A stretch of DNA of 64,000 nt from Lachnospiraceae bacterium (GTDB lineage Bacteria > Bacillota > Clostridia > Lachnospirales > Lachnospiraceae), in contig JAFXAZ010000035.1 in assembly GCA_017521985.1 (NCBI GenBank), positions 625-64,624 of the forward strand, read 5' to 3'. Each line of letters begins with the position of its first letter. Position 1 is the first letter of the stretch. A model generated the notes under the pieces. That model made no database searches and had not been told where the DNA came from. It was given only the letters and a program-made list of their open reading frames with translations. The position numbers and the translations under genes were made by a program. Of this stretch, positions 1 to 58,893 are shown piece after piece.

Positions 1-118
1 ATAGGTAGGGTCGCGCGAGAACCGCGTGAGGGTGAAATTCCCGTGGAGCTGAGCCAAGCAGCCGTCCGTATTTGCCTCTTTCTATTTTTCGATTTTTAAG
101 TTACTGAAAGGGGTTACT

Positions 119-307
119 ATGCAAGAAAACAAATTGCCGAAAGGCAAAGAAAATAAAGCAAGTGAAAATCCTCTGGAAGAAACAACGACCTACCGTATCG
201 AAGGTAGGTCGTTTGTCGTAAAGCCGGTATTCAAAGAAGGAAACGCCAATACCTTCGGTGCGATCCTTTTACGCCTTATGCAGGCAGATTGTGAAAGTAA
301 ATCGTAA
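119..307 (+). CDS. Small TnpW-like transposon-encoded protein (62 aa)
   Basis: The core TYRIEGRSFVVKPVFKEG...FGAILLRLM resembles the small TnpW proteins found beside serine recombinases in clostridial conjugative transposons. This is recalled, not searched. RBS-like GAAAGGGG lies upstream. Confidence 0.45.
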   Translation: MQENKLPKGKENKASENPLEETTTYRIEGRSFVVKPVFKEGNANTFGAILLRLMQADCESKS

Positions 308-324
308 AACTTCTGCAAACCCGG

Positions 325-354
325 CTGACAAGTGGCTGTCGGGCGCGGTATAAT
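325..354 (+). promoter_or_regulatory. Possible sigma-A promoter for the recombinase gene
   Basis: CTGACA (325-330), 18-nt spacer, TATAAT (349-354), about 65 nt upstream of the GTG start. Confidence 0.3.
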
Positions 355-418
355 ATAAGCGTGGAGATGTATCCACGCAAGAAAAATTGTTGTCCGACTG
401 TCCCGGAAAGGAGGACTT

Positions 419-2128
419 GTGAAACAGTCGAACAATAAAAAATCCCGTGACGTGACAGCCTTTCTTTATGAGAGACTTTCCCGTGACGATAATCTGGAAG
501 GTGAGAGCTACAGCATAGGCAATCAGAAAAAGCTGCTCACCAAAGTAGCCAAAGAAAAGGGCTACACGAATTTAGTTCATTTTATGGACGATGGTATTTC
601 AGGCGTAACGATGGACCGCCCAGGCTTTGTGGATATGATCCGTCAGCTTGAAGAAGGGCGCGCCGCTGCCGTGTTTGTCAAAGACCTTTCTCGTCTCGGA
701 CGAAACTATATTGAGGTCGGACGCTTGACAGAGGAATTTTTCCCCGAGCATGATATCCGTCTCGTAGCGGTCTCGGACAATATCGACACCGCCGAAGGTG
801 AAAACGAGCTGGCGCCGATCCGCAATCTGTTCAATGAATGGTACGCACGCGATATCAGCAAGAAACGCCGTATCAGCAATAAGATCAAGGGCAACGCAGG
901 CGAACCGATGGGACAGCCTCCCTACGGTTACATGAAGGACCCCGACAATCCGAAACGCTGGATAGTGGATGATGAAGCCGCCCTGGTAGTCAAGAGTATT
1001 TACAGTATGACCCTGGACGGCCTCGGAACGGAGCAGATCGCGGCACAGCTTGAACGGGATGAAATACTTACCCCACGCGCCTATTGGCTGCAGAAGGGCG
1101 TTAAACGCCCAGGAAAGGGCAAGCAGTTACCGCCTACACGGTGGAACAGCTCGACCATTACCAAAATTCTTTCTTTACAAGAATACTGCGGCGATATCCT
1201 CAATTTCAAGACCTACTCTAAATCTTATAAGAACAAGAAACGGATAGATAATGACCGTGAGAATTGGGTCGTTTTCAAGGACGTACACGAACCGATCATT
1301 GACCGCGCCGTATGGGAGCAGGTACAGCAGAAACGAGGAACGAGGCGCAGACGACGCACCAACGATGGAGAGAAAAATATGTTTTCGGGGCTTTTGGTTT
1401 GCGCCGACTGCGGAAACAACCTCCATTACCATTTCAATCAAGGCAATCCCGAGATCAAGTATTTCAACTGTTCCAACTACAAGGGCAACAGAGGGACTTG
1501 TACCTCTACCCATTATGTCCGTGTAGATTTTTTGGAGCAGGTGGTGCTTGGCGAGATCAAGCGGCTGACAAAGTTTGCGAGCCATTATGAGGACGATTTT
1601 GTAAAGGCCGTTATGGGTAGCTCTCAACAGAGTGTGGCGCTCAACCGCAAGCTCAAAGAAAAAGAGCTTGCAGCCTTGCAAGCCCGTGATGAAGAATTGG
1701 ACGGATTGTTTGAGCGCATTTATGAGGACAATGTTTCGGGTAAACTTTCCGATGATCGCTTTTCCAAAATGTCAAGACGATATGAGGACGAGCAAAAGGA
1801 GATATCCGAAAAGATAAAGACCCTCCGCGCTGAAATGGATAAATTGAGCAGTAAAGCCGTAACGGCGGATATGTTCATTTCCACCGTCCGTAAATACACC
1901 AGGGCAAAGGTATTGACGCCGCGAATGCTGAACGAGTTGATTGACCGCATAGAGGTCCATCAGGCGGAGAAGATCGACGGCGAATGGGTCCAGCACCTCA
2001 CCATTCATTACAACTGTGTGGGGGCGATATTCATTCCCGAGGTGTTCCCGCTACCGGTGCCCGAGGTATCCGTAAATACAAGAAAAGGCGTGGTCGTAAA
2101 CTACGCGCCATGCCAAGTCGCCATATAA
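419..2128 (+). CDS. Large serine recombinase (resolvase/invertase N-domain + recombinase domain + zinc ribbon + coiled coil)
   Basis: GTG start preceded by AAAGGAGGA. N-terminal catalytic motif AFLYERLSRDD. Cys-rich zinc ribbon CADCGNNLHY...FNCSNY...CTSTHY. C-terminal coiled coil. Architecture matches TndX/TnpX/phage-type large serine integrases. Confidence 0.9.
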   Translation: MKQSNNKKSRDVTAFLYERLSRDDNLEGESYSIGNQKKLLTKVAKEKGYTNLVHFMDDGISGVTMDRPGFVDMIRQLEEGRAAAVFVKDLSRLGRNYIEVGRLTEEFFPEHDIRLVAVSDNIDTAEGENELAPIRNLFNEWYARDISKKRRISNKIKGNAGEPMGQPPYGYMKDPDNPKRWIVDDEAALVVKSIYSMTLDGLGTEQIAAQLERDEILTPRAYWLQKGVKRPGKGKQLPPTRWNSSTITKILSLQEYCGDILNFKTYSKSYKNKKRIDNDRENWVVFKDVHEPIIDRAVWEQVQQKRGTRRRRRTNDGEKNMFSGLLVCADCGNNLHYHFNQGNPEIKYFNCSNYKGNRGTCTSTHYVRVDFLEQVVLGEIKRLTKFASHYEDDFVKAVMGSSQQSVALNRKLKEKELAALQARDEELDGLFERIYEDNVSGKLSDDRFSKMSRRYEDEQKEISEKIKTLRAEMDKLSSKAVTADMFISTVRKYTRAKVLTPRMLNELIDRIEVHQAEKIDGEWVQHLTIHYNCVGAIFIPEVFPLPVPEVSVNTRKGVVVNYAPCQVAI

Positions 2129-2133
2129 AGAAA

Positions 2134-2175
2134 GCGAGTGTTCTACAACATTTCAAATGCTGTAAGAACACTCGC
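2134..2175. other. Candidate hybrid attachment site (attR/attL) of the serine-recombinase element
   Basis: Perfect 11-bp inverted repeat GCGAGTGTTCT (2134-2144) / AGAACACTCGC (2165-2175), 6 nt after the recombinase stop. Its centre (2154/2155) coincides with the point where the SGNH frame runs into a stop codon. Confidence 0.45.
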
Positions 2176-2314
2176 CATGGTCCGGAAACTCAAATCCGAG
2201 TTCCCCTTTCACCAAGGTTGCGTAACCATATCCCAGAATCGCACTATCTTCTCTGGAACGACCTGCATCTGTTATAGAATCTCCTTGAAACAAGATTGTC
2301 CTAGTATTACTCAA
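2153..2314 (-). pseudogene. 5' fragment (53 codons) of an SGNH/GDSL hydrolase gene truncated by the mobile element
   Basis: Minus-strand translation gives (TTG)SNTRTILFQGDSITDAGRSREDSAILGYGYATLVKGELGFEFPDHGECSYSI*. It contains the block-I GDS(I/L) motif typical of GDSL esterases. Blocks II-V (NRGISGN etc.) are missing. The start abuts the stop of the upstream gene at 2315-2317. Confidence 0.6.
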
Positions 2315-3175
2315 CTATACTTCCTCACTTTCACTGTTTTCCTCATCTTCGCTGCTTTCACTGCTTTCAGTACTTGCCTCGCTGCTTTCACTGCTTTCGG
2401 TACTTACCTCGCTGCTTTCACTGCTTTCGGTACTTGCCTCACTGCTTTCACTGCTTTCGGTACTTGCTTCGCTGTCTTCACTGCTTTCGGTACTTGCCTC
2501 GCTGTCTTCACTGCTTTCAGTACTTGCCTCGCTGTCTTCGCTGCTTTCAGTACTTGCTTCGCTGTCTTCGCTGCTTTCGATACTTGCCTCGCTGTTTTCA
2601 CTGCTTTCAGTACTTGCTTCGCTGCTTTCGATACTTGCCTCACTGCTTTCGCTGCTCATCTCGCTAGCTTCACTCTTTACTTCTTTACTAAAATCAAAAA
2701 TATCTTCTAAGGCTAAATTTTCTTCACTTGGAGCAATACCCCAAAATGCTTCCGCTTCAATTTTAAGCTCTTTTTCTTTTGGTACATTTGATAAATAAAA
2801 TTCAAAAGAGTCCTCAGCAATCTGATCTGTATATAATTTTTTTATTTCTACTCCCTCTTCTACATCTGTTATACTTACTACACAATATCCTTGATTTGCT
2901 TTGCTGGATAAGTCGATTTGTACACGATAAGAACATACCTCTGAACTATTTGTATCTATATCATCTATATCCAAACTTAATGTTTGTAACTGCTCCTCCA
3001 TCAATTCAGACGTAACCTTAGTAACTGAATATTCAGCCACTGACACATAAGCCTCTTTTGAAGAATTACTGCTATCTATAAACCATGCCAAACTCATACC
3101 TGCGAGGCTGGATGCGCAAACTAAAATTACTAAAGTAAATATTGGTACCATTAGCATTTTTATTTTCTTACTCAA
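2315..3175 (-). CDS. Secreted TasA/camelysin-like protein with a C-terminal poly-acidic Ser/Glu repeat tail
   Basis: TTG start after GAGGAGGGG. N-terminal TM/signal with SLAWFIDSS (SipW-class signature). The C-terminal ~110 aa consist of (E/D)(A/S)S(T/I)ESSE(S/D)S repeats. Confidence 0.6.
   Translation of the reverse strand: MSKKIKMLMVPIFTLVILVCASSLAGMSLAWFIDSSNSSKEAYVSVAEYSVTKVTSELMEEQLQTLSLDIDDIDTNSSEVCSYRVQIDLSSKANQGYCVVSITDVEEGVEIKKLYTDQIAEDSFEFYLSNVPKEKELKIEAEAFWGIAPSEENLALEDIFDFSKEVKSEASEMSSESSEASIESSEASTESSENSEASIESSEDSEASTESSEDSEASTESSEDSEASTESSEDSEASTESSESSEASTESSESSEVSTESSESSEASTESSESSEDEENSESEEV
2351..2660 (-). repeat. Tandem 30-nt coding repeat (~10 copies) encoding the Ser/Glu-rich tail
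   Basis: The unit GCTGCTTTCACTGCTTTC(A/G)GTACTTGCCTC recurs at 2351, 2381, 2411 ... 2591, with point variants and shortened terminal units. Confidence 0.9.
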
Positions 3176-3818
3176 AACTTATCCCCTCCTCACCTTCAAT
3201 CTGAGTTGCATTCAAATCAAGACTGAATCCAATTTTCAAATCTGAAGCAATATTATTGTAAGCATTCCCTGTGCCCTCTGGCCAAGAGATGCAAATCTCA
3301 AAGGTATCCTCTGCATCTTTTACCAAAACAAGGTTTGTCCCGATGACATCACTAACTTCTGCAATTTCTGCAATTGTTTTTTCTATCACACTTTCACCTG
3401 AAGTTACCTTCACGCATAAAATTTCTTTTAAAGCATCTACTATGTCACTTTGCTCATTTTCTTCGTTAAATTCATAATCGTAATTCAAACGAAGTTCATA
3501 TTTTAACGGTAAAGCTCCAACATTTTTAACAATAATGTTTTCTGTAGCCTGCACACCCGGTTGCCACATAGATGCATTTGTCGCATCATCGCAATTATAA
3601 AGTTCTGTAAAAAGTTTTGTCTCACTTGTTACTTTATCCTCTGGTGTAGCACTACGATAAAATTCTATATCAAGTTCACCCGTTTTAATCTGATTATTTC
3701 TAGAAGAAACCCTGCTTTCAAACCAAGCATATGTGATTCCAAACAGCATAATACAACAGAGAAATAAAGCTATTAAACTACTCAACAATGCATTCCATCT
3801 TATTTTCTTGTCCGCCAT
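3168..3818 (-). CDS. TasA/camelysin-family secreted protein with SipW-type signal peptide
   Basis: ATG at 3818 preceded by AAGAGGA. Signature GITYAWFESRVSSRNNQIKTGELDIEF. C-terminal motif TGNAYNN...LKIGFSLDLNATQ. Confidence 0.65.
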   Translation of the reverse strand: MADKKIRWNALLSSLIALFLCCIMLFGITYAWFESRVSSRNNQIKTGELDIEFYRSATPEDKVTSETKLFTELYNCDDATNASMWQPGVQATENIIVKNVGALPLKYELRLNYDYEFNEENEQSDIVDALKEILCVKVTSGESVIEKTIAEIAEVSDVIGTNLVLVKDAEDTFEICISWPEGTGNAYNNIASDLKIGFSLDLNATQIEGEEGISFE

Positions 3819-4494
3819 TTTCAATTTCCTCTTTTTCTCCAGACTGCTCTTTTAAAGTTTGCAATTCCGCAATCAGTCTCTGAGTTTCTTTTCGTTCTGC
3901 TTCTAATTGTTGCCTTTCCAACTGGATTTCCTTCACTTGTTCTATACGATAAGCTTTGAAGTTTTTAGCACAAATCAATACCTGATATCCTATTAAAAAA
4001 AGAAATGGTATCAAAATACAACAAATATATCCGGGTATTGTTTTTAGGAACTGAAAGAAAACACCGATTTTAGGAATTCTCCACTGATACTTACCTATTA
4101 TCATGTCATAAGTTACGACCATATCATCATCAATATTATTCGTTGTTCCATATGTAACGTATCCTGGTTGTCCCATTTCGTTTGTTGCAGACTTCCTAAT
4201 TTTATGTGTAATTACCATTCCATAGTTCTCTTCGTTTCTAGCTTCATATGAAATAATATCGCCTTCTTTTAAAGATGAAGGTTCTACTAACTTGGTAAAT
4301 ACCACATCTCCTGCATTAAAATCTGTAGCACTCATAGAATCAGACAGAACAATAAAGGCTTTGTATCCAAAAAAACTTCTGTTATTTTGATCCAGTGTCG
4401 TTAAAGAGATTATTGTAAAAATCATCATAACCACTGCTATGATAAACACCCCCCAAAACAGTGCATCCTTTACACTCTTCCATGCTTTTTCCAT
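3778..4494 (-). CDS. sipW: Signal peptidase I, SipW (ER/archaeal) type, with an extra C-terminal TM segment and coiled-coil tail
   Basis: RBS AAGGAGGAGG. N-terminal TM. Catalytic Ser in VLSDSM and His in VITHKI. C-terminal extension ...ERQQLEAERKETQRLIAELQTLKEQ. Confidence 0.8.
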   Translation of the reverse strand: MEKAWKSVKDALFWGVFIIAVVMMIFTIISLTTLDQNNRSFFGYKAFIVLSDSMSATDFNAGDVVFTKLVEPSSLKEGDIISYEARNEENYGMVITHKIRKSATNEMGQPGYVTYGTTNNIDDDMVVTYDMIIGKYQWRIPKIGVFFQFLKTIPGYICCILIPFLFLIGYQVLICAKNFKAYRIEQVKEIQLERQQLEAERKETQRLIAELQTLKEQSGEKEEIENGGQENKMECIVE

Positions 4495-4531
4495 GGTTCC
4501 TCCTCCTTAAAATGAATACTGCGCCTGATTT

Positions 4532-5284
4532 CTATAAAGCTTCTAACTCACCTCTTATTGCGCTATCGTCTTCCATCTTTTCATGAAATATTTTTTGCTT
4601 ATTTTCAAGCTTCATAAATTCCCGGTAATATCTTATTCCAAATTCCCGTAGAGATTTCGAATTAAAATGCAAGTTATCAGGATTAGAAGTTAAACCTTCT
4701 GCTGAAACAAAACCTGTCATCTCATTATTCATACTTATGCTTTTTAATGCTTCATTCACATATACATAATTCATGGAAACGACATTTGACTTGTAATTTT
4801 TAAGATAATCTCCCAATCCACCTACTAAAAATGGCACATCGTACAACTCTAGATCTCTTCTGAATGCTGCCATCATTTTTTCAAATCTTTCCTGATATGT
4901 TGAGTACCTGTCCGGCTCACAATCAGCTTCTCCCTGATGCCACAAAACTCCAGCTATAGTGGATGTTCTTGAGGCAAGCCTTGATTGATAAATGGCATGA
5001 TCATATAATAAACTTCCCTCTTTCCACTGCTCCAATGATGTTCCACCATCCGCACACGGAATCAAACCTACACACACGTCATGTTCTTTTGCATAAGCCT
5101 CTGCAAAACTTTCTGCAAGACTAATCCCCGAAAAAGAACGATCACAATTTACAGGTACATACATCGTTTGCCATCTTCCGTTCCTAAGAACTTTAAGCCT
5201 ATCACTCTTGATTAGCTCCACTTCGTTCACAAAACCTCGACCAGCCATATTAGACTGTCCAATCATCAGAAATGAGTGAATCAT
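4532..5284 (-). CDS. SASA/CE6-like carbohydrate O-acetylesterase (probable acetyl-xylan or sialate-type esterase), no signal peptide
   Basis: The start MIHSFLMIGQSNMAGRG carries the GQSNM motif of the sialate-O-acetylesterase / CE6 family. Start chosen at 5284, just downstream of the upstream gene's stop (5298); the longer ORF to 5383 would overlap that gene. Confidence 0.7.
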   Translation of the reverse strand: MIHSFLMIGQSNMAGRGFVNEVELIKSDRLKVLRNGRWQTMYVPVNCDRSFSGISLAESFAEAYAKEHDVCVGLIPCADGGTSLEQWKEGSLLYDHAIYQSRLASRTSTIAGVLWHQGEADCEPDRYSTYQERFEKMMAAFRRDLELYDVPFLVGGLGDYLKNYKSNVVSMNYVYVNEALKSISMNNEMTGFVSAEGLTSNPDNLHFNSKSLREFGIRYYREFMKLENKQKIFHEKMEDDSAIRGELEAL

Positions 5285-5297
5285 TTTATTCCGCCCT

Positions 5298-5849
5298 TCA
5301 ATCATTAAATTCTTTGTTTGGATTATTTTTAGTCTGTACTGCATCTGCATACATGTTAAAATACAAACTATGATCCTGTACAACGTTGCCTGCTTCCTTA
5401 GGGAAATAAATAGTCATTACTAAGTCCCTTTTTTCATTTATCTCCAATAAATCATCAGCTGCTCCTGCATTACTCTTTGTCAGTTCAGAAGCCGTTCCCT
5501 GATAGAGTATCTTTGCGCCATCAGATAAAGTGATTTCCAGTACATCTGAAAGCCCACCATCTATATCATCCAGATATAGCCTATAATAAACAGCCCAGTT
5601 GCTATTATTTTCTATAAAGAAATTTTTTCGAACAGTCATTCCCGGCTCGAAAAGAAATTCATCTTCTTCAATAACGGGTTTGCCGTCATTTAAATTAATA
5701 TCAATAATTCCGGTTTGAAAAATGTTCTCTTTGACAGACACGCTATCATAAAACAAAGCATAGCTTGAAACACAAAGACAAATTAAAAGAAACATAGCAA
5801 AAACTAAGCTTGTAGCCATTTTATTCAAATTATTCTTTTTATTGTACAT
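5298..5849 (-). CDS. TasA/camelysin-family secreted protein with SipW-type signal peptide
   Basis: ATG at 5849 preceded by AAGGGAG. Signature SSYALFYDSVSVKENIFQTGIIDINL. C-terminal AGNVVQDHSLYFNMYADAVQ. Confidence 0.55.
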   Translation of the reverse strand: MYNKKNNLNKMATSLVFAMFLLICLCVSSYALFYDSVSVKENIFQTGIIDINLNDGKPVIEEDEFLFEPGMTVRKNFFIENNSNWAVYYRLYLDDIDGGLSDVLEITLSDGAKILYQGTASELTKSNAGAADDLLEINEKRDLVMTIYFPKEAGNVVQDHSLYFNMYADAVQTKNNPNKEFND

Positions 5850-6468
5850 TTGTTTTCTCCCTTCTACCATGTCTCAACCCAAAATATACTAGTGCATAAA
5901 AAGCAAATCCCATCGCAACAATCCAGAAATACATATTAGTATTATCTCCAGTCAGAGTACTTGGCAAATAATCTGTTGAATCATCTTGTTCAGGAGTGAC
6001 CTCCATATCCTCGACTTCTTCGCCCTCTACAAACCAAATAAAATCTGCTGTCAGTTTTTTGTTTTGATACTCATTACCCACACTGGTATCCAGCCATACA
6101 CTAATCTCATAATGTACGTCTAGCGTAGTTTTTTCTGTAGCTTTAAGTTCATAATCAAGTGAAGAAGGCATCTCCTTCATCGTACCGTTATAAAGTACTT
6201 GTTCGCCTTCTTTAACCTTTACCTGCACATACAAAACTTCTGCAAGCATTTCACTGCCTTCATGAATATCTGTATCAAATTGCAATGTAATGTCCTCATC
6301 ATATGTAACCTTGACACAAAAGTTTTCAACAATTTTATCACCCGGAAACATGTTTTCCGCATTAAACGGTACACTATCACTGGTAATGTCAGTCGCTTTT
6401 ACCTCTACTACATTTATCGCAAAAAATATCACCATTACGGCAATCAAATTTTTTAAAACTTTTTTCAT
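5839..6468 (-). CDS. TasA/camelysin-fold secreted protein with a C-terminal membrane/wall anchor
   Basis: Ordinary signal peptide. Motifs MFPGDKIVENF...VGNEYQNKKLTADFIWF. C-terminus is YLPSTLTGDNTNMYFWIVAMGFAFYALVYFGLRHGRREK, i.e. a sorting-signal-like motif, hydrophobic helix and basic tail. Confidence 0.5.
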   Translation of the reverse strand: MKKVLKNLIAVMVIFFAINVVEVKATDITSDSVPFNAENMFPGDKIVENFCVKVTYDEDITLQFDTDIHEGSEMLAEVLYVQVKVKEGEQVLYNGTMKEMPSSLDYELKATEKTTLDVHYEISVWLDTSVGNEYQNKKLTADFIWFVEGEEVEDMEVTPEQDDSTDYLPSTLTGDNTNMYFWIVAMGFAFYALVYFGLRHGRREKTNVQ

Positions 6469-6504
6469 ATTCTATCATTCCGTTATACTCTTTAAAAAAG
6501 GTGC

Positions 6505-6538
6505 TGTCACACCGCAGAAAATAATCTCCAGTGTGACA
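6505..6538 (-). terminator. Hairpin + T-run after the GH10 gene (possible partial terminator/attenuator inside the operon)
   Basis: TGTCACAC (6505-6512) pairs with GTGTGACA (6531-6538). On the minus strand the hairpin is followed by TTTTTT. Confidence 0.5.
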
Positions 6539-6565
6539 CCCCTTCACAAAACTTCTATTTAGAAA

Positions 6566-9181
6566 TTAATCGATTGTAATTTCTAATACATTTTCATATC
6601 CCTTGTGATATGCACAAGAAACGGTTTTACTATCGCCGTCTACCGTTACAGTAACATCATAATCTCCGTAGAAACCACGAACTGTAGCAATACCGGAAGC
6701 ATTAGTAGTAGCCTTTGCATCTCTAGTCCACCACTTATTGTATACAAGGTCAGCAAATACCTGACCAGCCGGCTTCAAATTCCAGTTACCATCATAGATA
6801 GGAGAATATGTTGCAAAATTACTGCCATCCCAGAAGCCCCACATCAAGAAACCATCCATACTTTCTTCTGCAAAGCATGAAATCATAACATCTCTCATAT
6901 AGTTAGCCTGTAATGCCTGATCTGGAATAGAACATGAGAATTCAGTAATCTTTAATCTCTTACCATAATCTGCCTCAAGCTTATCATAGAATGCCATAAG
7001 TTCTGTAGGCATCTTAAATGCTGCAATATTATCATAGTGAGACTGGATACCAAGACCATCATAGTCTACATCCAACTCTTCAAACAAATCTAAGTACTCG
7101 ATATACTCAGGTTTCCATACATCAGATGCTTCGTTGTAGTAAAGCATTGTGTCTTCACCAGCAATTGCTCTTGCCATTTCGAACCATTTTACAAATAACT
7201 CTGCACCATGTGCTTTTTCAAATACATTATTTGTAACAATTTCATTTACAACATCCCAATCCACCATATCCGGGAATGTGCCAATAATACTTTCAAAATG
7301 ATCTTCACAATATTCAAGCAATTGTTCTTTATCGTCAATACATGCTGTGCCATTGTCTTTAAATAATCTTTCAGGCATTAAATATGTAGTACCATCGGAA
7401 GCAAATGCTCTCTGCCAAATCAATGGATGACCTCTGAAGTACTTTGCACCTGCTGTTTTAGCTGCTTCTACCTGTGCTGCTGCTTCATCCGGATGTGCTT
7501 CAAATGGTGCCCACTTCATGATATGTTCTGCTACACCGGTATTGAATAAAGCACCATATTTTTCCTGTGTTGTGGCATCAGTAATTGAAGAATTCACAGA
7601 AGTACCAAACTGGAATTCATGTTCAAACATATCAAATTCTACTTCTGCATTTGGAATCACGTTTCCGTTAGCATCCTTTACAACAACTGTGAAATCACCT
7701 TTTCTAATTTCTTCGATTCTTTCGTTTGCTGCTGTTCTCCATTCTGCATCCTTTGCTAATTCAGTATATGTACTTGCACTAGATGTTGACGGTAAATCAT
7801 CAACTGTTAATGTAGTTTTATGAGTGAAGTTGATAATTTCAAATCCACCAATTTCAACTGTACCTAAGTTTGAACATGCTCTTATACCGATAGAAGTTGC
7901 TTTTGGATTAGATCTAACTGCTTTATAAGGCACGAATATTATTGACCATTCATCATCGATAGTATAATTTAAGAACACATCTTTTTTATAACTTCCTGAT
8001 GGCTGCTCAATCTGAATATAAACTTCGTTTGCACCATCACCACCGTCATTCGTACTTCTTGCCCAAAATGCACAAAGCATAATGGAATTTATTGCAGGAT
8101 CTTCCGTTAAGTTTGGATGCTTAGGTTTTGCAGTTGTTTTAACAACATAGTCTGATGTTTTTGCAGGAACAGTGGTACAATTAATACGAAGTACTCTGTT
8201 AAATGCACCTTCCGGTCCTTCAAGTGCTACTACCTCATCTGTACCATATGCACTTGTATCTGTTTCTCTACTAGCTAATGGAATAATACCATCTAAAAAC
8301 TCATCTGCTGTGGTTACGACCGTACCCTGCGCCTTAACCTGATTGTATAATGCAAGCTGCTCTTCTGCGGATAGGCCTTCAAAGTGCATAATATCATTCA
8401 AGTCACTGCTTAATGTAAACTGAGTAGGTACATTTCTATGTACTGTACTTACAAGTTCTGCCATACCGACTTTCTGACTTCCCTCATCATTATATGTAGC
8501 ATCTTTGTCATACTGATTGCCAAAGCTATCTTCTTCTTTTGCAAGCTGTCCTGCTACAACCTGAACATCAATATCAAGTGTTTTGCCCTGATAATCATTT
8601 CCGGCATCTTCGTCCATATGTACAGCTAATGCGAAGCAATCATTGCTTCCTTCTTCAGCAAGCTGTCCATTCTGTGCTGCTGTAATAGTACCTCTTGGTA
8701 CATCTCCCACCTCAACACCGTCCATTGCTGCAAGAGTTTCCCAATCTGTGATATTTGCTTGTGCAAATGACTCTGCTGTTGCACCGTTTACAATAGCGTA
8801 ATCCAACACACTTGCCAGGTTAATCTTGTCTTCCGTATCTGTATCTTTTACAGTCAGTACAATATTGTACTTTAACGCAAGACTTCCCATATTCTTTACC
8901 TGAAGGAATACAATTTCTGTCTTGCCTGGTTCCCAGCTTACACCGTTACCAGTACTTTCGCTAAAAATATCTCCTTCTCCGTCAGCAATGCTAACGTAAC
9001 CATTACCATCCTGCTTGTCCATTAATAAATCTACCTTCAAGGTACCTGCCTGAATACGGTTGCCTGTGTTAGATACATTACTTGTGAACCACGCCATGGT
9101 GCTTCCAAGAAACATTGAAACACATAGTATTAATGATAGAATACTACTTAACAATGCTTTCTTTTTGTTTACTTTTTTCAT
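6566..9181 (-). CDS. 871-aa fusion: SipW-type signal peptide + TasA/camelysin-like domain + CBM4_9/22-like module + GH10 endo-1,4-beta-xylanase + C-terminal Ig-like domain
   Basis: N-terminus LGSTMAWFTSNVSNTGNRIQAGTLKVDL ... AGNDYQGKTLDIDVQVVAGQ. GH10 motifs GHPLIWQ, WDVVNE (acid/base Glu) and LKITEFS (nucleophile Glu). Confidence 0.8.
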   Translation of the reverse strand: MKKVNKKKALLSSILSLILCVSMFLGSTMAWFTSNVSNTGNRIQAGTLKVDLLMDKQDGNGYVSIADGEGDIFSESTGNGVSWEPGKTEIVFLQVKNMGSLALKYNIVLTVKDTDTEDKINLASVLDYAIVNGATAESFAQANITDWETLAAMDGVEVGDVPRGTITAAQNGQLAEEGSNDCFALAVHMDEDAGNDYQGKTLDIDVQVVAGQLAKEEDSFGNQYDKDATYNDEGSQKVGMAELVSTVHRNVPTQFTLSSDLNDIMHFEGLSAEEQLALYNQVKAQGTVVTTADEFLDGIIPLASRETDTSAYGTDEVVALEGPEGAFNRVLRINCTTVPAKTSDYVVKTTAKPKHPNLTEDPAINSIMLCAFWARSTNDGGDGANEVYIQIEQPSGSYKKDVFLNYTIDDEWSIIFVPYKAVRSNPKATSIGIRACSNLGTVEIGGFEIINFTHKTTLTVDDLPSTSSASTYTELAKDAEWRTAANERIEEIRKGDFTVVVKDANGNVIPNAEVEFDMFEHEFQFGTSVNSSITDATTQEKYGALFNTGVAEHIMKWAPFEAHPDEAAAQVEAAKTAGAKYFRGHPLIWQRAFASDGTTYLMPERLFKDNGTACIDDKEQLLEYCEDHFESIIGTFPDMVDWDVVNEIVTNNVFEKAHGAELFVKWFEMARAIAGEDTMLYYNEASDVWKPEYIEYLDLFEELDVDYDGLGIQSHYDNIAAFKMPTELMAFYDKLEADYGKRLKITEFSCSIPDQALQANYMRDVMISCFAEESMDGFLMWGFWDGSNFATYSPIYDGNWNLKPAGQVFADLVYNKWWTRDAKATTNASGIATVRGFYGDYDVTVTVDGDSKTVSCAYHKGYENVLEITID

Positions 9182-9320
9182 TGTCTTTCATCCTTTCTTA
9201 ATAAATATAATTTTCGTAACCTATCCATTACATTTTTATTAGAACCTACATGTCTAATTATTACAATGACGTTTTCGTTAACGCATATACGCTTTTTATA
9301 TTTAGGTTAATATCAAAAAA

Positions 9321-9343
9321 ATCCGCGGATTTCTCCACGGATT
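9321..9343 (-). terminator. Rho-independent terminator downstream of the GH130 gene (bidirectional shape)
   Basis: ATCCGCGGA-TTTC-TCCACGGAT hairpin flanked by an A-run and a T-run. The minus strand reads hairpin then TTTTTTT. Confidence 0.6.
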
Positions 9344-9447
9344 TTTAAATACAGGAAACATTATCTTAATATTAGGAAAAGCCCGCTTTTACGAGCCTCT
9401 TCTGAAAGGGATATATATGATTATACTTGCAGCACAAAAAAAGAAAT

Positions 9448-10452
9448 CTAAAGTCTACCCAAACAAAGGTCTACCAAATCCTGAACCTTTGCCGTTGCCA
9501 TACATTCTACGGTGTCATTCAAACCATAATATATTTTTGCCGTACCATCTTCTTCTGCAATAAGACCGCCCGGGAAAATAACATTGGTGCGGAAGCCTTC
9601 GTTTTCTTCATAATCTCCTTCCGGTGCAATCAATGGCTCTTTATACATGCCAATTACTTTAGAAGGATTTTCTAAATCCAACAACATTACACCTACACAA
9701 TAACGTTTCTGCCACTTTGGTTCCCATCCATTTTTTTCGCGCTCCGTGTCTTTATCCACGGTGTGGAATAATACCAGCCATCCCTCTTTTGTCTTAATCG
9801 GAGGTGCTCCAGGACCGATTTTATCATTTGCATATGGAACATGCTCCACGCCTAAAAGAAGCTCAGCCTCGCCCCAATATCTTAAATCAGGAGACTTAGA
9901 CATCCAAATGTCAAAACGGTCTTTTCCCCCTCTGGAATATACCGGAAATGGACGCTCTAAACGTACATATTTTCCATCCACTTTTTCCGGGAACAATACC
10001 ATATTTCGATTATCCGGTACGGTCAGAGATAATACTTCCACTGTTTTGAAGTCGTCCGTCACTGCTACTCCGCCTCTTACACCATGATTGGTATCCACAG
10101 CAAAGCAAAGATAACAACGGTCATCGATTACCGTTAATCGTGGGTCATACACTCGCTTTACATCCGGGTCATTCATATCCTCAACCGTTAGAAATGGCTT
10201 ATCTTGTACGTCCCAATGAATACCATCCTCTGAAAAAGCAATACCAATTACACACTTTCCAAATCGGCTGATACCATTAAACTGTGAATCATTTCTAAAA
10301 ACCATGACATACTTGCCACGAAATTTTGTGACGCCGGCATTAAAAATACACTCTGCATCATAAGGAATGTTTTTTTTACTTAATACCGGTTTCCCACCCC
10401 GATAACGTGTAATTACAGGGCTTGATTTTAATTCCGGAAACATTTTTCCCAT
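9448..10452 (-). CDS. GH130 family glycoside phosphorylase (beta-1,4-mannoside/mannooligosaccharide phosphorylase-like)
   Basis: Typical GH130 blocks: IFNAGVTKFRGKYVMVFR, YDPRL, VLFPEKVDGKYVRLERPF, GPGAPPIKT. Confidence 0.8.
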   Translation of the reverse strand: MGKMFPELKSSPVITRYRGGKPVLSKKNIPYDAECIFNAGVTKFRGKYVMVFRNDSQFNGISRFGKCVIGIAFSEDGIHWDVQDKPFLTVEDMNDPDVKRVYDPRLTVIDDRCYLCFAVDTNHGVRGGVAVTDDFKTVEVLSLTVPDNRNMVLFPEKVDGKYVRLERPFPVYSRGGKDRFDIWMSKSPDLRYWGEAELLLGVEHVPYANDKIGPGAPPIKTKEGWLVLFHTVDKDTEREKNGWEPKWQKRYCVGVMLLDLENPSKVIGMYKEPLIAPEGDYEENEGFRTNVIFPGGLIAEEDGTAKIYYGLNDTVECMATAKVQDLVDLCLGRL

Positions 10453-10639: not shown

Positions 10640-11458
10640 ATGAAAACCAATGTACGACTCATAAAGAAAAAGCAAGATTACAAACAGGAAATCTTTTTTG
10701 AACGAAAAAATCTAAACATATCCAGCACCGTTCACTGGCATGATTTTTATGAAATAGATATTATTTTGTCCGGAAGCGGGACAACGATGATAAACGGCAA
10801 AGACCACCTGCTGAGCGAAGGAACTATGAGTTTCTTGACTCCATCCGATTTTCACGATATAACGTCTTCCGGTTTAAGTATTTTTAATATTCAATTTTCA
10901 GAAGATTGTGTGGACTATGAAATCTTAAACGCATTGATTCATACGAATAGCAGAATATGTCATTTGGATCAAGCCCAAACAGAAAGTATATGCAAGCTAT
11001 GTGCTCTGCTTGAAACAGCGCACATGAACACTGCATACCAGAAGATATATTATCAGAAAATATTAGAAAGTATTTTTTTGATTTTTTTGCAGAATGTACA
11101 CGCCACTGGCGAAAAATCTACACAGACAGAGCCGGATATCATTCAGCAGATTATTGTTTACCTAAATATGCACTTTATGGAAAATCCATTATTAAAGGAA
11201 ATTGCCGAGCAGTTTCACCTGAACGAAAACTATCTTTGTATGCTGTTCAAAGAACAAATCGGTGAAAATTACAAAAGTTATCTGCGCAGCCTCAAACTAA
11301 ATCACGCAGAAAAACTTATTATATACACCAATATGCCCATCACTGAAATTGCTTTCAGCAGCGGGTATAATACACTTTCGCATTTTAACAGGGAGTTTAA
11401 AAGTATGTTTCATATTACTCCTTTGGAAATGAGAAAGCAGGCGAATTTTTCCCAATAA
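10640..11458 (+). CDS. AraC-family transcriptional regulator (cupin sensor + HTH)
   Basis: N-terminal cupin region HWHDFYEIDIIL. C-terminal AraC HTH ...ITEIAFSSGYNTLSHFNREFK. Divergent from the GH130 gene. Confidence 0.85.
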   Translation: MKTNVRLIKKKQDYKQEIFFERKNLNISSTVHWHDFYEIDIILSGSGTTMINGKDHLLSEGTMSFLTPSDFHDITSSGLSIFNIQFSEDCVDYEILNALIHTNSRICHLDQAQTESICKLCALLETAHMNTAYQKIYYQKILESIFLIFLQNVHATGEKSTQTEPDIIQQIIVYLNMHFMENPLLKEIAEQFHLNENYLCMLFKEQIGENYKSYLRSLKLNHAEKLIIYTNMPITEIAFSSGYNTLSHFNREFKSMFHITPLEMRKQANFSQ

Positions 11459-14007: not shown

Positions 14008-14336
14008 AGTCGGGCTTTGGACTTCCCTTTTCCCGACTGATTATCTTATTTAACTTCTCAGATAGGGGAACTTTTGCCCCTTTCCCCCGACCGCCTACAC
14101 CTTTTTTCATTCCCGGTCGGGGGCATCCTACACACTTGCCCCGACTATCTACACCTCTTTTCATCTCCGGTCGGGGGTATCCCGCACATTTGCCCCGACT
14201 ACCTGCTTCTCTTTTCATCTCCGGTCGGGGTAACCACTAGCATTTCCCCCGACCGCATGTCTCATTTGCTCTTTCAGGTCGGGAGAATCACATGCACTTA
14301 CCCCGACCGACTGCATCACCTTCCACCTTCAGTCGG
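14008..14336. repeat. Tandem array of ~6 degenerate ~54-nt units, each forming a CCCCGAC...GTCGGGG hairpin
   Basis: Stems at 14084-14093/14114-14123 (perfect 10 bp), 14139-14145/14170-14176, 14193-14199/14224-14230, 14248-14254/14277-14283 and 14307-14312/14331-14336. A further inverted pair lies at 14008-14014/14032-14038. Loops and linkers are also conserved. Confidence 0.85.
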
Positions 14337-16667
14337 AGCATGCCAACTCCTAACCTCTATTTTTCCATACATCTCTACCATTATCGCCCCTTGCCTGCCT
14401 GTATACCACAATTCTGCGTTAATCTCATTCATTCGTGCCACAGCATCTGCATGGGGATGTCCGTAGGAATTGCCAACGCCATAGGAAAGAATAATATGCT
14501 CCGGCATGGAAGTCTGCAAAAATTCAGAGGAATTGGAATATTTAGAGCCATGGTGCGCTGCTTTCAGAACTGAAATATTGCTTCCTGTATCCAACATATT
14601 CAAGCTCTCAACCTTTAATGGATTCTGTGCATTATACTGAGTCTTCTCCTGCACCTCACTCAGTTTTTCCAGCAAAGTCGCCTCCTGCTCTGCGCCAATA
14701 TCCCCTGTCAGCAAAATTCCATGCCCTTGATATGTAAATAACAGCACCTGCGAATATCCATTGGCATCCTCTACATCCACACAGTGCTTAACCGGATGCA
14801 AAACCTCCAGCTCCAGTTCCCCCATTTGCAGACTGTCTCCTGCTCCTAGAGTTGTTACCGGTATATCCAAGGTTTCTGCAGAACGAAGCAGTTCTCCAAA
14901 CTCCTGCTCTAAAGCCTCCTTGCCAAGGGAAGGCAGCACAATCCGTCCTATTTTCACGTGACTATGCTCATATGTAGTAAGCCACTGTAAAATACCATTC
15001 ATGTGGTCCCCATCTGCATGGCTGATAAATACACCATCCACCTCGGAAATCCCATAGTATTTTAAGCAGGGCAAAAGTATATTATCCGCCACCTTACTTT
15101 CACTGGTACTTCCACAGTCTACCACATATGTCTCCTGCCCATACTGAAGCACGGTACAGTCTCCCTGCCCTACACTAAGGAAACGACAGGTCAGCCCGAA
15201 AACCGGTCTTATCATCAAAATGACAACCGCCGCCATCATTGCCCCACAGACCAAAAGCGAAACCCATTTCTTCTTTCCATGAAGCAGCAGGTATCCCCAT
15301 AAAAACAAACACACATAATAAAGCACTATCTGCCAGCCTGCCGGAGCCCCCAATACCAGACAATGGTACGGAAGCTTCTGACTTTGCAGGCATATTTGCT
15401 CGTAACCCCACAAAAGCCCCTGACACACATACACAAAAGGAAGCGCCACCACACTAACATCCCCTGGTGTTGCCAGCACGATTGCACCGAAACCTACTAT
15501 ATATGGCAAACATGGAAGTACCATAATATTAATTAGCATGCTATATATCGGATATTCGTAATAAAAATACAACTGTATCGGAAAGGTAGCCGCCAAAATC
15601 CCAATCCCCCCTGAAAATAACTTGCCAAACCATTTCACTATGGTAACTTTGTCTTTGCAAAGCTTTTCCACCAAGGGCGCTATCACAGTAACTCCCAGAA
15701 CTGCTCCAAAGGACAGCAAAAACCCGCTATAAAATACATATAGCGGCTGCTCCAATAGTAACAGCATGGCTGCAACGGATAATCCGGTCAGCCTGTCATA
15801 GGTTCTTCCTAAAAGCAAGGCAGACATTTGCATGGCAAACATACAAATAGCCCGAAAGGTAGCCGCCTGTGTGCCAATCATCGCGCCATACATTACTACA
15901 AGCAAAAGCCCTGCTACCGCCGCCGACTTCACAGGAACTTTGAGCCTTCGCAGCATGTTAAAACACCCCATCCCCAGCATGCTGATATGCAGTCCGGATA
16001 TGGTCAGAATATGCAAGATTCCTCCTTCTCTAAACAGGTCTTTTAATGCGTGATCTAAATCAGCCTTATCTCCCAAGAGTATAGTCTTCATAACACCAGC
16101 GTACTTCGGAGAAAAATAGGTATTGATTTTTTGTAGGAAATATTGTTTGAAATTATATAAAGATTGGGAAAAAAGAGTTTTTTCCTGGTTACACCAAATC
16201 ACTTCAGCATCCCATATTCCCCCACCTATGTCTTGTATGTGATAATAAAACTTACTATCAAACTGACCGGGATTTTGTGCTGACTCATAAGGCTGAAAAG
16301 AGCCCTTTACCCAGACACGTGAGCCTATAGGAATTTGTGAATTGGAAATATTGGAATAACAATAGATTTTGTCGTGCACATACGTTGTGCCGGAATTGTC
16401 TTTTGTATTTGAAACAGAATTGTTTTTATCAGAAAGGTAAGATGTTTGTACTGTACTGCTCTTTTCAAGAGAAACACCTTCCAGTAAATAAACAGTTTGT
16501 ATTTCTCCGTTGATTTCCTGTTCTTTTATAGATACGACCTGACCGTTTACATATACTGTTCTGCCCTTCCATGCACTATAATCCGGCAGGAGGGGCGGAA
16601 ACAGTGTGTAAAATACTCGAATAAACAGGATAAAGAGCAGGCAGGCGCACCCCAATGGCCGCTTCAT
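14316..16667 (-). CDS. comEC: DNA internalization competence protein ComEC/Rec2 (with metallo-beta-lactamase domain)
   Basis: Polytopic membrane core. C-terminal MBL motif FISHADGDHMNG ... AAHHGS. Confidence 0.9.
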   Translation of the reverse strand: MKRPLGCACLLFILFIRVFYTLFPPLLPDYSAWKGRTVYVNGQVVSIKEQEINGEIQTVYLLEGVSLEKSSTVQTSYLSDKNNSVSNTKDNSGTTYVHDKIYCYSNISNSQIPIGSRVWVKGSFQPYESAQNPGQFDSKFYYHIQDIGGGIWDAEVIWCNQEKTLFSQSLYNFKQYFLQKINTYFSPKYAGVMKTILLGDKADLDHALKDLFREGGILHILTISGLHISMLGMGCFNMLRRLKVPVKSAAVAGLLLVVMYGAMIGTQAATFRAICMFAMQMSALLLGRTYDRLTGLSVAAMLLLLEQPLYVFYSGFLLSFGAVLGVTVIAPLVEKLCKDKVTIVKWFGKLFSGGIGILAATFPIQLYFYYEYPIYSMLINIMVLPCLPYIVGFGAIVLATPGDVSVVALPFVYVCQGLLWGYEQICLQSQKLPYHCLVLGAPAGWQIVLYYVCLFLWGYLLLHGKKKWVSLLVCGAMMAAVVILMIRPVFGLTCRFLSVGQGDCTVLQYGQETYVVDCGSTSESKVADNILLPCLKYYGISEVDGVFISHADGDHMNGILQWLTTYEHSHVKIGRIVLPSLGKEALEQEFGELLRSAETLDIPVTTLGAGDSLQMGELELEVLHPVKHCVDVEDANGYSQVLLFTYQGHGILLTGDIGAEQEATLLEKLSEVQEKTQYNAQNPLKVESLNMLDTGSNISVLKAAHHGSKYSNSSEFLQTSMPEHIILSYGVGNSYGHPHADAVARMNEINAELWYTGRQGAIMVEMYGKIEVRSWHAPTEGGR

Positions 16668-16685: not shown

Positions 16686-17615
16686 TTACTTAATATAATT
16701 TAAATCTCTGCTGAACACGGTAGTAAGCGGAATCACTTCTCGAAACATCACATCCGTACTGCCGGCTACCAATATCTGCACACGGTCAATGCCGGGCAGC
16801 TCGCACAAGGAATTTACGATGCTGTAAATAGCCACTTCTGCCTTCACTTCATAAACCTGCGTCAAAAACGTACTGTCAAAATTTACGTAGCAGGTATTAT
16901 CCTTTACCAGCGTACTGATTAATTTGGTGTCAGGATTGATAGTTGGATAAACGCCATGTGTGGTGGTACCCGGTCCTTTTAACAATTCTTCCACCACAAA
17001 CTTGTCCAAAGAAATATTGGTATTGTAAGCCTTGCTTCTATCTACAGCAATCAGCCCATCTCCGGCCTCATTTGCAAAATAAAGACGAATGGTAACCTTT
17101 TCATATGTACTGATTTCTTCACCGGCATTGTCAATGAACATATCCGCAGTCATAGCACCTATGGCTTTATCCAGACTATCACGCAGAGGTTCGCCGTCAA
17201 TATGAATCGTTACTGAATCAATTCCCTCAATCTGCGTAATGCTTTTTACCAGGGATGCACGTGTCAGAATCTCCATAAGTGTATTTAACTGCTTATATTC
17301 TTTAGAAAGATTGAGCACCAGTGAATTGTTGGTAATATTGGTGGTAAGTACTGTTATGCCCTGTGAAATCGGAACCTGATACTCCAGCTTTTTGGGTGCT
17401 GTAGCAAGCAAAGTCAATACTTCCTCTAACTGTGCCTCTACACTTTCTCCCAGCAAATAAACTTCCTTTTCCACAACTTTATTGTTCTGGGCACCAATAT
17501 AAGACATCATAATGGCTGTTCCTTCCGTTTCTTCCTCTTTACAGCCTGTTAACATGCCCAATAGCAAAAGCATCACAAACAACACACCAAATCGATATAG
17601 TTTGCATTTTTTCAT
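16686..17615 (-). CDS. GerMN-domain lipoprotein
   Basis: Lipobox LLGMLTGC. Two GerMN-like repeats (..VTIRLYFANEAGDGLIAVDR..). Confidence 0.7.
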   Translation of the reverse strand: MKKCKLYRFGVLFVMLLLLGMLTGCKEEETEGTAIMMSYIGAQNNKVVEKEVYLLGESVEAQLEEVLTLLATAPKKLEYQVPISQGITVLTTNITNNSLVLNLSKEYKQLNTLMEILTRASLVKSITQIEGIDSVTIHIDGEPLRDSLDKAIGAMTADMFIDNAGEEISTYEKVTIRLYFANEAGDGLIAVDRSKAYNTNISLDKFVVEELLKGPGTTTHGVYPTINPDTKLISTLVKDNTCYVNFDSTFLTQVYEVKAEVAIYSIVNSLCELPGIDRVQILVAGSTDVMFREVIPLTTVFSRDLNYIK

Positions 17616-37910: not shown

Positions 37911-38013
37911 AACAATTCCACCTTTTTTCTTTAATATGCCCATTGACAGTTTTTTTCATTCTGTTAAAATAGAAAATGAGTGATTATATTTTGTAACGAG
38001 GTATGATAATACT

Positions 38014-58880: not shown

Positions 58881-58893
58881 AGCACTCTCCGTT

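Follow-up and report, generated by a model that had tools for sequence, protein, structure and literature searches.

A SipW-type gene cassette with a TasA-like module fused to a GH10 xylanase: candidate donor-strand enzyme display in a xylan-utilisation locus of a Lachnospiraceae bacterium

How do Gram-positive gut bacteria that degrade plant fibre without a cellulosome keep their enzymes on the cell? The answer is only partly understood, and a gene cluster in a Lachnospiraceae bacterium raises the question in a concrete form. The window analysed here, meaning the whole stretch of 64,000 nucleotides (nt), comes from contig JAFXAZ010000035.1 of assembly GCA_017521985.1. Close to its beginning lie minus-strand genes for a protein of 871 amino acids (aa), in which an N-terminal module precedes a glycoside hydrolase family 10 (GH10) xylanase, for a signal peptidase of SipW type, and for four smaller proteins which are called p218, p190, p209 and p286 below. 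The initial annotation, made from the sequence without database searches, had described a sipW-centred operon of five proteins with the TasA fold plus hemicellulases, and a sipW-centred set of TasA-family paralogues, one of them fused to a GH10 enzyme, is indeed present. Is this a system for enzyme display? We regard the chances as evenly balanced that the cluster is a SipW-dependent surface-assembly cassette of the TasA/BsaA type, embedded in a xylan-utilisation locus, in which donor-strand assembly would hold the xylanase at the cell surface. The argument starts from the fusion protein.

The enzyme part of the fusion is clear. Pfam finds GH10 (PF00331) at E 4.9e-27, and in alignments with solved GH10 xylanases (PDB 7d88, E 1.2e-28) both catalytic glutamate motifs, WDVVNE and KITEF, are conserved, so the GH10 assignment made earlier stands. 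A carbohydrate-binding module (CBM) had been assigned to the same protein; aa 235-474 match no Pfam family at E <= 1 and have no similarity to the CBM_4_9 domain of a relative (P0005), and this assignment is not confirmed. The module at aa 1-234 was modelled by AlphaFold2 (AF2) from a 67-sequence alignment of its family, with a mean predicted local distance difference test score (pLDDT) of 82.5 and a predicted template modelling (TM) score (pTM) of 0.72. The model contains the signal helix, a low-confidence stretch at aa 33-43 just past the predicted cleavage site, and a beta-sandwich. The best PDB match of this model in Foldseek is the TasA fibre 8aur (E 8.5e-6, probability 1.0, TM-score 0.42), and the second is the Pyrobaculum bundling pilus 7ueg (E 1.1e-4, TM-score 0.35-0.43), both of which are donor-strand filaments. 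A TasA fold is thus predicted for the N-terminal domain, and on the model the module is a TasA-like jellyroll, homologous to TasA-type fibre subunits. When PDB sequences were searched with the module, as single sequence or as profile, no significant match was found; the similarity to TasA is therefore visible only by fold and by profile-profile comparison. In Pfam, Peptidase_M73 (PF12389) reaches the fusion protein exactly at its cutoff of 22.5 bits and covers aa 7-51 only. A protease activity of the camelysin type was also considered and rejected, because no peptidase family other than Peptidase_M73 was matched by the TasA-like products; annotation of TasA and CalY as proteases is regarded as a misidentification (PMC11580942).

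Might the fusion be an ordinary soluble secreted xylanase, whose N-terminal domain binds carbohydrate or at least does not assemble and has only inherited a SipW-type signal peptide, while the neighbouring genes serve a separate biofilm matrix? Beta-jellyroll domains N-terminal to GH10 are commonly CBMs, glycosidase accessory domains and CBM15 do appear among the weaker Foldseek matches of the module, and the xylanase gene is separated from that of p209 by a 97-nt gap with a weak terminator-like hairpin. Against these points, the two best structural matches are the filaments just named, the module itself matches no CBM family in Pfam, and its homology to p218, and to a family that often reaches Peptidase_M73 as described below, extends over the full length. 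The fusion moreover still adjoins sipW in a second species, a Lachnospiraceae metagenome-assembled genome (MAG) from roe-deer colon. There the orthologue (L001/P0083, 868 aa) shares 65% identity with the window protein over the module and 56% over the C-terminal part, and it lies directly beside sipW and a p286-like gene. The search for sipW beside GH10 fusions in related genomes that had been proposed with the initial annotation thus gave a positive answer, and since the arrangement recurs, a chance juxtaposition of fusion and sipW is unlikely. Among the alternatives weighed here, the soluble enzyme fits the homology data and the conserved sipW linkage worst, and we judge it decidedly improbable.

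The second line of evidence is the processing machinery. The peptidase scores 77.3 bits with TIGR02228, the model of archaeal-type signal peptidase I (cutoff 51.85), and 74.7 bits with the Bacillus SipW equivalog NF046067, below the cutoff of 190. By these profiles it is the same enzyme type as SipW and not the Bacillus orthologue. Its motifs LSDSM and ITHKI are present, which bears out the ER/archaeal-type assignment, and it carries an extra C-terminal transmembrane segment with a coiled-coil tail. Four products of the cassette have the matching cleavage signature A↓WF or A↓LF (the arrow marks the cut) at their N-termini, just as quoted in the initial annotation; the signal-peptide profile TIGR04088 stayed below its cutoff in this check (15.5 bits, cutoff 19). 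Phe at P2' is a TasA feature that requires SipW (PMC10269814). To see how constant the region is, residues were counted in the 67-sequence alignment of the module family. Just past the predicted cut, A30, W31 and F32 occur in 66/67 sequences and T33 in 65/67; position 34 is D in 62/67 and S in the window GH10 protein; N41 (63/67), I43 (59/67), G46 (66/67) and L48 (63/67) follow. In the core, WEPG is found in 66-67 of the 67 and GN(E/D)YQ is also conserved, with N195 in 64/67 and Q212 in 67/67, and the four C-terminal GN-YQ/N motifs reported earlier were all recovered. After the jellyroll there is a further conserved segment, ATQ..E.DSFG..YD. In TasA, residues 28-38, just past the SipW site, reach across into the sandwich of the following subunit, and a C-terminal segment forms the second fibre interface (PMC9674648). 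By analogy, the conserved strand after the cleavage site and the conserved segment after the jellyroll would correspond to those parts of TasA that rearrange for fibre contacts (PMC9674648).

A side observation concerns three residues of the GH10 module encoded within window 8870-9061, N41, E84 and K104, which are conserved in 63/67, 67/67 and 54/67 sequences. Among the window paralogues only the GH10 module has all three; at least one is missing from p218 (WQPG), from p190 (K to Y) and from p209 (MFPG; K to Q). Their spacing is reminiscent of the N-E-K triad of BsaA (PMC11580942), and one may speculate, purely by analogy, about a BsaA-like isopeptide lock.

What, then, are the other members of the set? 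p218 aligns to the module family over aa 1-214 in HHalign (99.8% probability, E 3.8e-28), with Peptidase_M73 at 21.4 bits, below the 22.5 cutoff, and a weak match to TIGR04090, the BsaA family (E 1e-5). For p190 the match covers aa 32-169 (98.7% probability, E 4.6e-16), Peptidase_M73 passes the cutoff with 26.8 bits, and the protein carries a SipW-type signal peptide. From these alignments, p218 and p190 are stand-alone full-module TasA-like subunits. p209 is different. The profile of its family (35 sequences) matches the module family with 96.8% probability (E 2.6e-10), and only aa 38-146 are aligned, to module aa 81-207, that is, from the WEPG/MFPG strand to the GNEYQ strand. It has an ordinary signal peptide with the site VKA↓T, and because the mature N-terminus lies only about 15 residues before the core match, the region AWF...N.IQAG.L.VDL is absent. 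Its AF2 model (pLDDT 84.9) is a beta-sandwich with a C-terminal helix. The tail reads LPSTLTGD, a hydrophobic helix and RHGRREK, and in the family [SP]PxTGD, a transmembrane segment and an RRK tail are conserved. The description of p209 as an anchored member hence holds for its predicted sortase-like C-terminal anchor, while the donor-strand region is missing, and p209 is a candidate for a cell-anchored, acceptor-only base.

The opposite truncation is seen in p286. Its family, built by local HMM (hidden Markov model) from the related loci, aligns to the module family over aa 2-57 only (98% probability, E 1.3e-13), which is the SipW-type signal peptide and the TasA-like N-terminal strand, and has no HHalign match to p209. 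After the strand comes a beta-rich domain of about 100 aa (GYC...Y.T.QI...WG), without match to the module, p209 or any PDB sequence, and then a Ser/Glu-rich repeat tail. When the p286 profile was run against PDB sequences at E <= 10, eight chains came up, none named TapA and nothing significant; a word-indexed search of 5.8 billion proteins returned near-identical copies only. Neither p209 nor p286 matches Peptidase_M73, and p209 has no Pfam match at all. Since homology of the Ser/Glu-tailed protein is confined to aa 2-57, its earlier assignment as a TasA fold had to be given up, and the five folds become, on these alignments, three full modules (GH10 fusion, p218, p190), one core-only protein (p209) and one strand-only protein (p286). 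p286 is thus a candidate donor-strand-only cap or nucleator, an analogue of TapA and not a member of its family. In passing, its tail is encoded by a 30-bp tandem repeat of 9.4 copies with 91% matches (2349-2629), giving SEASTESSE(D/S), and the repeat number is polymorphic, as lengths of 251, 286, 291 and 296 aa are found across metagenome contigs.

p209 and p286 are therefore complementary truncations, core and anchor without strand in one, strand without core in the other, and an assembly scheme can be drawn from them. SipW would cut after the conserved Ala of (S/T)-x-A↓W-F and expose the N-terminal strand, which would slot into the sandwich of an adjacent module in the way known from the donor-strand exchange of TasA. 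The envelope-held p209, with no strand to donate, would accept the strand of the first subunit and act as the base. p218, p190 and the GH10 fusion could both donate and accept, so that a chain would grow, and p286, able to donate only, might cap the last open groove or else nucleate as proposed for TapA, whose N-terminus resembles a donor strand and was proposed to supply the first one (PMC9674648). The product would be a cell-attached homo- or hetero-oligomer that holds the xylanase at the surface. Released oligosaccharides would then enter through an ABC system, and in the cytoplasm the SASA and GDSL esterases would, together with GH30, deacetylate and trim them. A passenger at the C-terminus is compatible in principle with such a fibre, because engineered C-terminal fusions of TasA with MHETase or OPH assemble into functional, active fibres in B. 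subtilis (PMC8332661). Enzyme display by donor-strand assembly is thus plausible from the sequence data.

Several points weigh against this scheme and should be noticed. The TM-score of the module to TasA is modest, and the Peptidase_M73 matches score at or close to the cutoff, with most of their extent in the signal peptide and N-terminal region. The case for the proposed polymerisation is the sequence conservation of the strand and the post-jellyroll segment. Paralogy is no guarantee of co-assembly either, as BsaB of C. perfringens stays out of the polymers of its paralogue BsaA (PMC11580942). The p209 model gives only generic beta-sandwich and jellyroll matches in Foldseek, for which reason the assignment of p209 rests on HHalign; the window p209 has STLTGD (after LPST) where its family has [SP]PxTGD; and a TLxTC motif scan finds no sortase gene in the window. 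A weak pair of terminator-like and promoter-like signals lies between the GH10 gene and that of p209. Finally, a passenger of 637 aa on each subunit might sterically limit long fibres. In an alternative picture, the module does not polymerise and is a SipW-dependent handle for export or surface retention that docks 1:1 on p209 through one inserted strand, or a mere spacer or stalk, and the enzymes are tethered individually. Large passengers are sterically easier in 1:1 complexes, p209 offers a ready-made anchored acceptor-only partner, related loci with up to seven fusion proteins could dock each of them separately, and BsaB of C. perfringens forms only dimers. On the other side, the fusions retain the whole acceptor domain though a strand alone, as in p286, would suffice for docking; the post-jellyroll interface segment is strongly conserved; and the passenger-free p218 and p190 and the donor-only p286 would have little role. 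We consider 1:1 docking unlikely, though it deserves to be kept in mind more than any other alternative.

Does the assembly stay on the cell? The module proteins might instead become part of a biofilm matrix that is released onto plant particles, a TasA-like extracellular scaffold common to the community, where the xylanase would be immobilised in the matrix without being anchored to the cell. TasA and BsaA are matrix proteins, the sorting motif of the window p209 is degenerate, the TLxTC scan reveals no sortase nearby (in 86 related loci, only 2 sortase reading frames lie within 10 kb), and p286 has an acidic Ser/Glu repeat tail to which cations or polysaccharide could bind. The sorting signal of the p209 family is well conserved, however, and the family has at least a C-terminal transmembrane anchor. 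Gram-positive xylan loci such as those of Roseburia and Eubacterium, moreover, generally couple cell-proximal cleavage to ABC import. A released matrix is therefore, in our judgement, very improbable, and the cell-attached assembly is kept as the preferred reading.

How widely is the module used? To this end, 1.84 billion cluster representatives were searched exhaustively with it by phmmer, and 6,140 of them matched at E <= 1e-3 and 4,890 at E <= 1e-10. Of the best 150, nearly all have the match at about residues 1-230, most are 400-1,500 aa long, and only four are below 300 aa. With one genome per species, at least 581 loci hold a relative of the module; the counts of cassette genes given here cover 80 of them, many of which are cut by contig ends. 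By title, almost every one of the 80 belongs to a Clostridia MAG (Oscillospiraceae, Acutalibacteraceae, Lachnospiraceae and others), many of these sampled from the gut or faeces of animals, and two are labelled Bacteroidaceae or Alloprevotella. Matches to p218 were found by tblastn in all of them (80/80), each locus has one to seven module-bearing open reading frames (ORFs), and the full ORFs are 225-1,913 aa long. A SipW homologue lies within 10 kb of the module gene in 37/80 loci. p209-like proteins occur in 20/80, many with the C-terminus [SP]PxTGD, hydrophobic stretch and RRK, and p286-like proteins in 24/80, usually as the last gene of the cassette; all three kinds are found together in 14/80. 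The usual order is p209-like, p190-like, sipW, module fusions and p286-like (for example L026, L073, L059 and L066), and orthologues of p190 stand between p209-like genes and sipW in at least eight loci. Three loci (L013:7826-9262, L014:14-1516, L005:3105-4529) have the p209-like and p190-like parts joined in one ORF of 474-500 aa, which lacks a C-terminal sorting signal and may be a fused base-plus-subunit variant.

Passengers were scanned with Pfam in two sets, 66 locus ORFs (A3) and the 73 closest representatives (A6). Peptidase_M73 is matched in 31/66 (E <= 1e-5) and 36/73 (E <= 1e-4), respectively. Among the passengers, CBM_4_9 was found in 0/66 and 10/73, Beta_helix in 1/66 and 8/73, LRR_5 in 5/66 and 2/73, and Peptidase_M26_N in 3/66 and 0/73; CBM6, F5/8 type C, a GH141 insertion domain, an RGL11 C-terminal domain and a 3-keto-disaccharide hydrolase are single cases. 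Beyond the window, GH10 is carried in these sets only by the orthologue from the roe-deer MAG. These data invite a wider view, which we hold more tentatively than the reading of the window and rather doubt than believe. In gut and rumen Clostridia, TasA-type filaments would be a general display scaffold independent of cellulosomes, with an anchored acceptor base, interchangeable passenger subunits (xylanase, CBMs, beta-helix enzymes, LRR adhesins, dockerins), a TapA-like cap or nucleator and possibly the covalent lock at N41/E84/K104; the window would be its xylan-wired instance. In some loci (L014, L075 and others), tandem arrays of up to seven genes share the same N-module and differ in C-terminal parts of 200-450 aa, which mostly have no Pfam match and represent a large reservoir of unannotated surface domains. 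One relative (P0070, 380 aa) joins the TasA-like module to a type I dockerin (aa 322-373, 28.6 bits, cutoff 22.9), a hint at a connection between the module and cohesin-based cellulosome scaffolds in some species. In the window itself, no locus product matches Dockerin or Cohesin in Pfam, that is, the hallmarks of a cellulosome were not found, and the enzyme has neither SLH nor LPXTG in the same scan.

There is a further question, whether the cassette really belongs to xylan utilisation. Followed downwards along the minus strand, the DNA of the window is homologous to metagenome contig L083 as far as about 2178, where the GC content rises from 0.35 to 0.48 on entering a mobile element. The element, which fills window 1-2178, is absent from L083, an uninterrupted metagenome allele, and there the locus runs on with genes for a GDSL esterase, GH30 and two ABC permeases, followed by others. 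Because of this continuation the locus can be called a xylan-utilisation locus. In the window, the first 45 codons of the last minus-strand ORF are identical in translation to the start of the 212-aa GDSL esterase of L083 and the rest diverges. The GDSL stub, the GC step, the recombinase and the L083 allele together show a hemicellulose-utilisation locus whose 3' part was cut off by the mobile element. The large serine recombinase is outside the system and marks this disrupted 3' end. Beside this, the element was observed to sever the xylan locus of the window from its GH30 and ABC-transporter genes, and on contig L081 it continues with HTH_16, sigma-70 region 4, ABC_trans_CmpB, TauE and MMPL genes. 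The placement of the cassette inside a hemicellulose-utilisation locus is thus upheld by L083, by the neighbouring GH130 gene and by GH10 itself. The two interleaved esterases described in the initial annotation fared unequally: the SASA gene is intact and interleaved with the cassette (Pfam SASA, E 2.9e-51), but the other is only the GDSL stub. The N-terminus of the SASA esterase leads straight into its GQSN block, and since this block opens the protein, there is no signal peptide and a cytoplasmic location is predicted; the GDSL esterase of L083 opens in the same manner. Both are predicted from sequence to be cytoplasmic metabolic enzymes and not fibre parts. By tblastn the SASA esterase and GH130 are found in 0/80 related loci, so it appears that in the window a generic cassette was combined with xylan genes.

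The features are collected in Table 1. Independent gene calls on 13 metagenome contigs match the seven intact minus-strand genes, and give 183 aa for p190 and 250 or 257 aa for the SASA esterase. Seven co-directional, packed or overlapping minus-strand ORFs had been reported between 9181 and 2153; they are confirmed, with the correction that the intact genes end at 2315. The hairpin upstream of the GH10 gene is, by a consensus scan, probably the upstream limit of the transcription unit, GH130 forms a neighbouring glycan-utilisation context, and the divergent AraC-family gene is a candidate regulator of the locus. In the gap at 6469-6565, consensus matching gives a short terminator-like hairpin (6500-6513) and a TG-extended promoter-like site (6469-6496). 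Because of this pair, co-transcription of the GH10 gene and p209 is uncertain, and judging from these signals the xylanase may be expressed at a level different from the rest of the cassette. In the consensus scan the numbers of terminator-like and promoter-like sites are not above shuffled expectation, hence the operon boundaries are tentative.

Table 1. Features of the xylanase cassette and its surroundings, with the Wadjet genes, in window coordinates
Feature	Position	Strand	Remark
Large serine recombinase, mobile-element edge	419-2128	+	Pfam Resolvase, Recombinase, Zn_ribbon_recom, DUF4368
GDSL esterase 5' remnant	2153-2314	-	45 codons in a 53-codon ORF; mobile-element cut at about 2178
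p286	2315-3175	-	8-nt overlap with p218
p218 (216 aa as called)	ORF 3168-3824; called 3168-3818	-	41-nt overlap with the peptidase gene
SipW-type (archaeal/ER-type) signal peptidase I	3778-4494	-	
SASA-family carbohydrate esterase	ORF 4532-5383; probable start 5305 or 5284	-	
p190	ORF 5298-5870; probable start 5849 (183 aa)	-	11-nt overlap with p209
p209	5839-6468	-	97-nt gap to the GH10 gene
GH10 fusion protein, 871 aa	6566-9181	-	First gene in transcription order
GH10 fusion: C-terminal part, GH10 xylanase with flanking beta-sandwich parts	Pfam aa 518-809 (nt 6755-7630)		
GH10 fusion: middle region	aa about 235-474	-	No family match
GH10 fusion: TasA-like module with SipW-type signal peptide	aa 1-234 (nt 8480-9181)	-	
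Terminator-like hairpin	9317-9346	-	13-bp stem and T run; between GH130 and GH10 fusion genes; consensus scan
GH130 glycoside phosphorylase or hydrolase	9448-10452	-	Pfam GH130, E 2.8e-44
AraC-family regulator, divergent	10640-11458	+	Pfam HTH_18 and AraC_binding
JetD	53812-55092	-	PADLOC, E 3.7e-79 to 0 for JetA-D
JetC	55046-58351	-	PADLOC
JetB	58257-58880	-	PADLOC
JetA	58894-60288	-	PADLOC

Elsewhere in the window there are genes for a ComEC-like protein (14316-16667), a ComEA-like HHH protein (19772-20368), a Germane-domain protein (16686-17615) and SpoVAD (36879-37943), which mark the host as a Firmicute that forms spores and carries competence genes. A complete type I Wadjet anti-plasmid defence system (jetABCD) occupies 53812-60288 on the minus strand.

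What would the cassette mean if the preferred reading is right? Should the TasA module tether its passengers or polymerise them, it would be a new and apparently very common surface-display system, one that links the biology of biofilm fibres to polysaccharide utilisation and provides a natural counterpart to engineered TasA-enzyme materials. The combination of a SipW-type signal peptide with AWFTD...WEPG...GNEYQ...ATQ gives a search signature for surface-displayed carbohydrate-active enzymes (CAZymes) and adhesins in metagenomes. Moreover, the complementary truncations of p209 and p286 would make filament polarity and termination directly testable. In a full-text literature search, with most subscription journals outside its scope, we found no report of a natural fusion of a TasA- or SipW-linked protein with a glycoside hydrolase or CBM, and no description of a TasA-type subunit inside a polysaccharide-utilisation locus, of a large passenger-bearing family, or of a pair of strand-less anchored and strand-only paralogues. 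A hetero-fibre as such is no new idea: earlier work on clostridia has suggested both that TasA/BsaA paralogues form heteropolymers and that they have neighbours with LPXTG (PMC11580942). What is new is the passenger, be it an enzyme or a CBM.

The closest known system is tapA-sipW-tasA of B. subtilis (8AUR). It shares with the window a dedicated archaeal-type signal peptidase and A↓xF cleavage sites, and the modules resemble TasA in having an N-terminal donor-type strand, a jellyroll core and a C-terminal (N/Q)xYQ...ATQ strand, although sequence identity to TasA is only about 13%. Like TapA, p286 has a disordered tail and resembles the subunit in the N-terminal strand alone; unlike TapA, it carries a domain without detectable similarity to that of TapA. 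The window differs from B. subtilis further in its several subunit paralogues, one bearing the GH10 passenger, in the extra acceptor-only paralogue with a C-terminal sorting signal, and in its position within a glycan-utilisation locus instead of a biofilm regulon. The sipW-bsaA-bsaB-bsaC operon of C. perfringens is likewise a clostridial sipW operon with several TasA-family paralogues, and in some strains an LPXTG-bearing paralogue was proposed as the wall anchor (PMC11580942). It has no CAZyme, its large non-TasA secreted protein BsaC (vWA) is separate whereas the passenger of the window is fused, and the N-E-K isopeptide lock is demonstrated for BsaA while in the window family only the residues are conserved and equivalence is by analogy. 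The archaeal bundling pili (AbpA, 7UEG), AbpX and cannulae are also donor-strand filaments of the TasA superfamily; unlike the window system, AbpA-type pili are archaeal, free of passengers and without a dedicated peptidase. In cellulosomes and in sortase-anchored modular xylanases, such as that of the Xyn10A locus of Roseburia intestinalis, a surface-held endoxylanase is combined with an ABC importer and with cytoplasmic esterases and glycosidases. The system proposed here would likewise hold its xylanase at the surface by modular attachment to an anchored partner, but the attachment would be beta-strand complementation of a TasA-type module. The engineered TasA-enzyme fusions, finally, are synthetic, whereas the fusion in the window is natural, conserved in two species, and one among thousands of module-passenger fusions.

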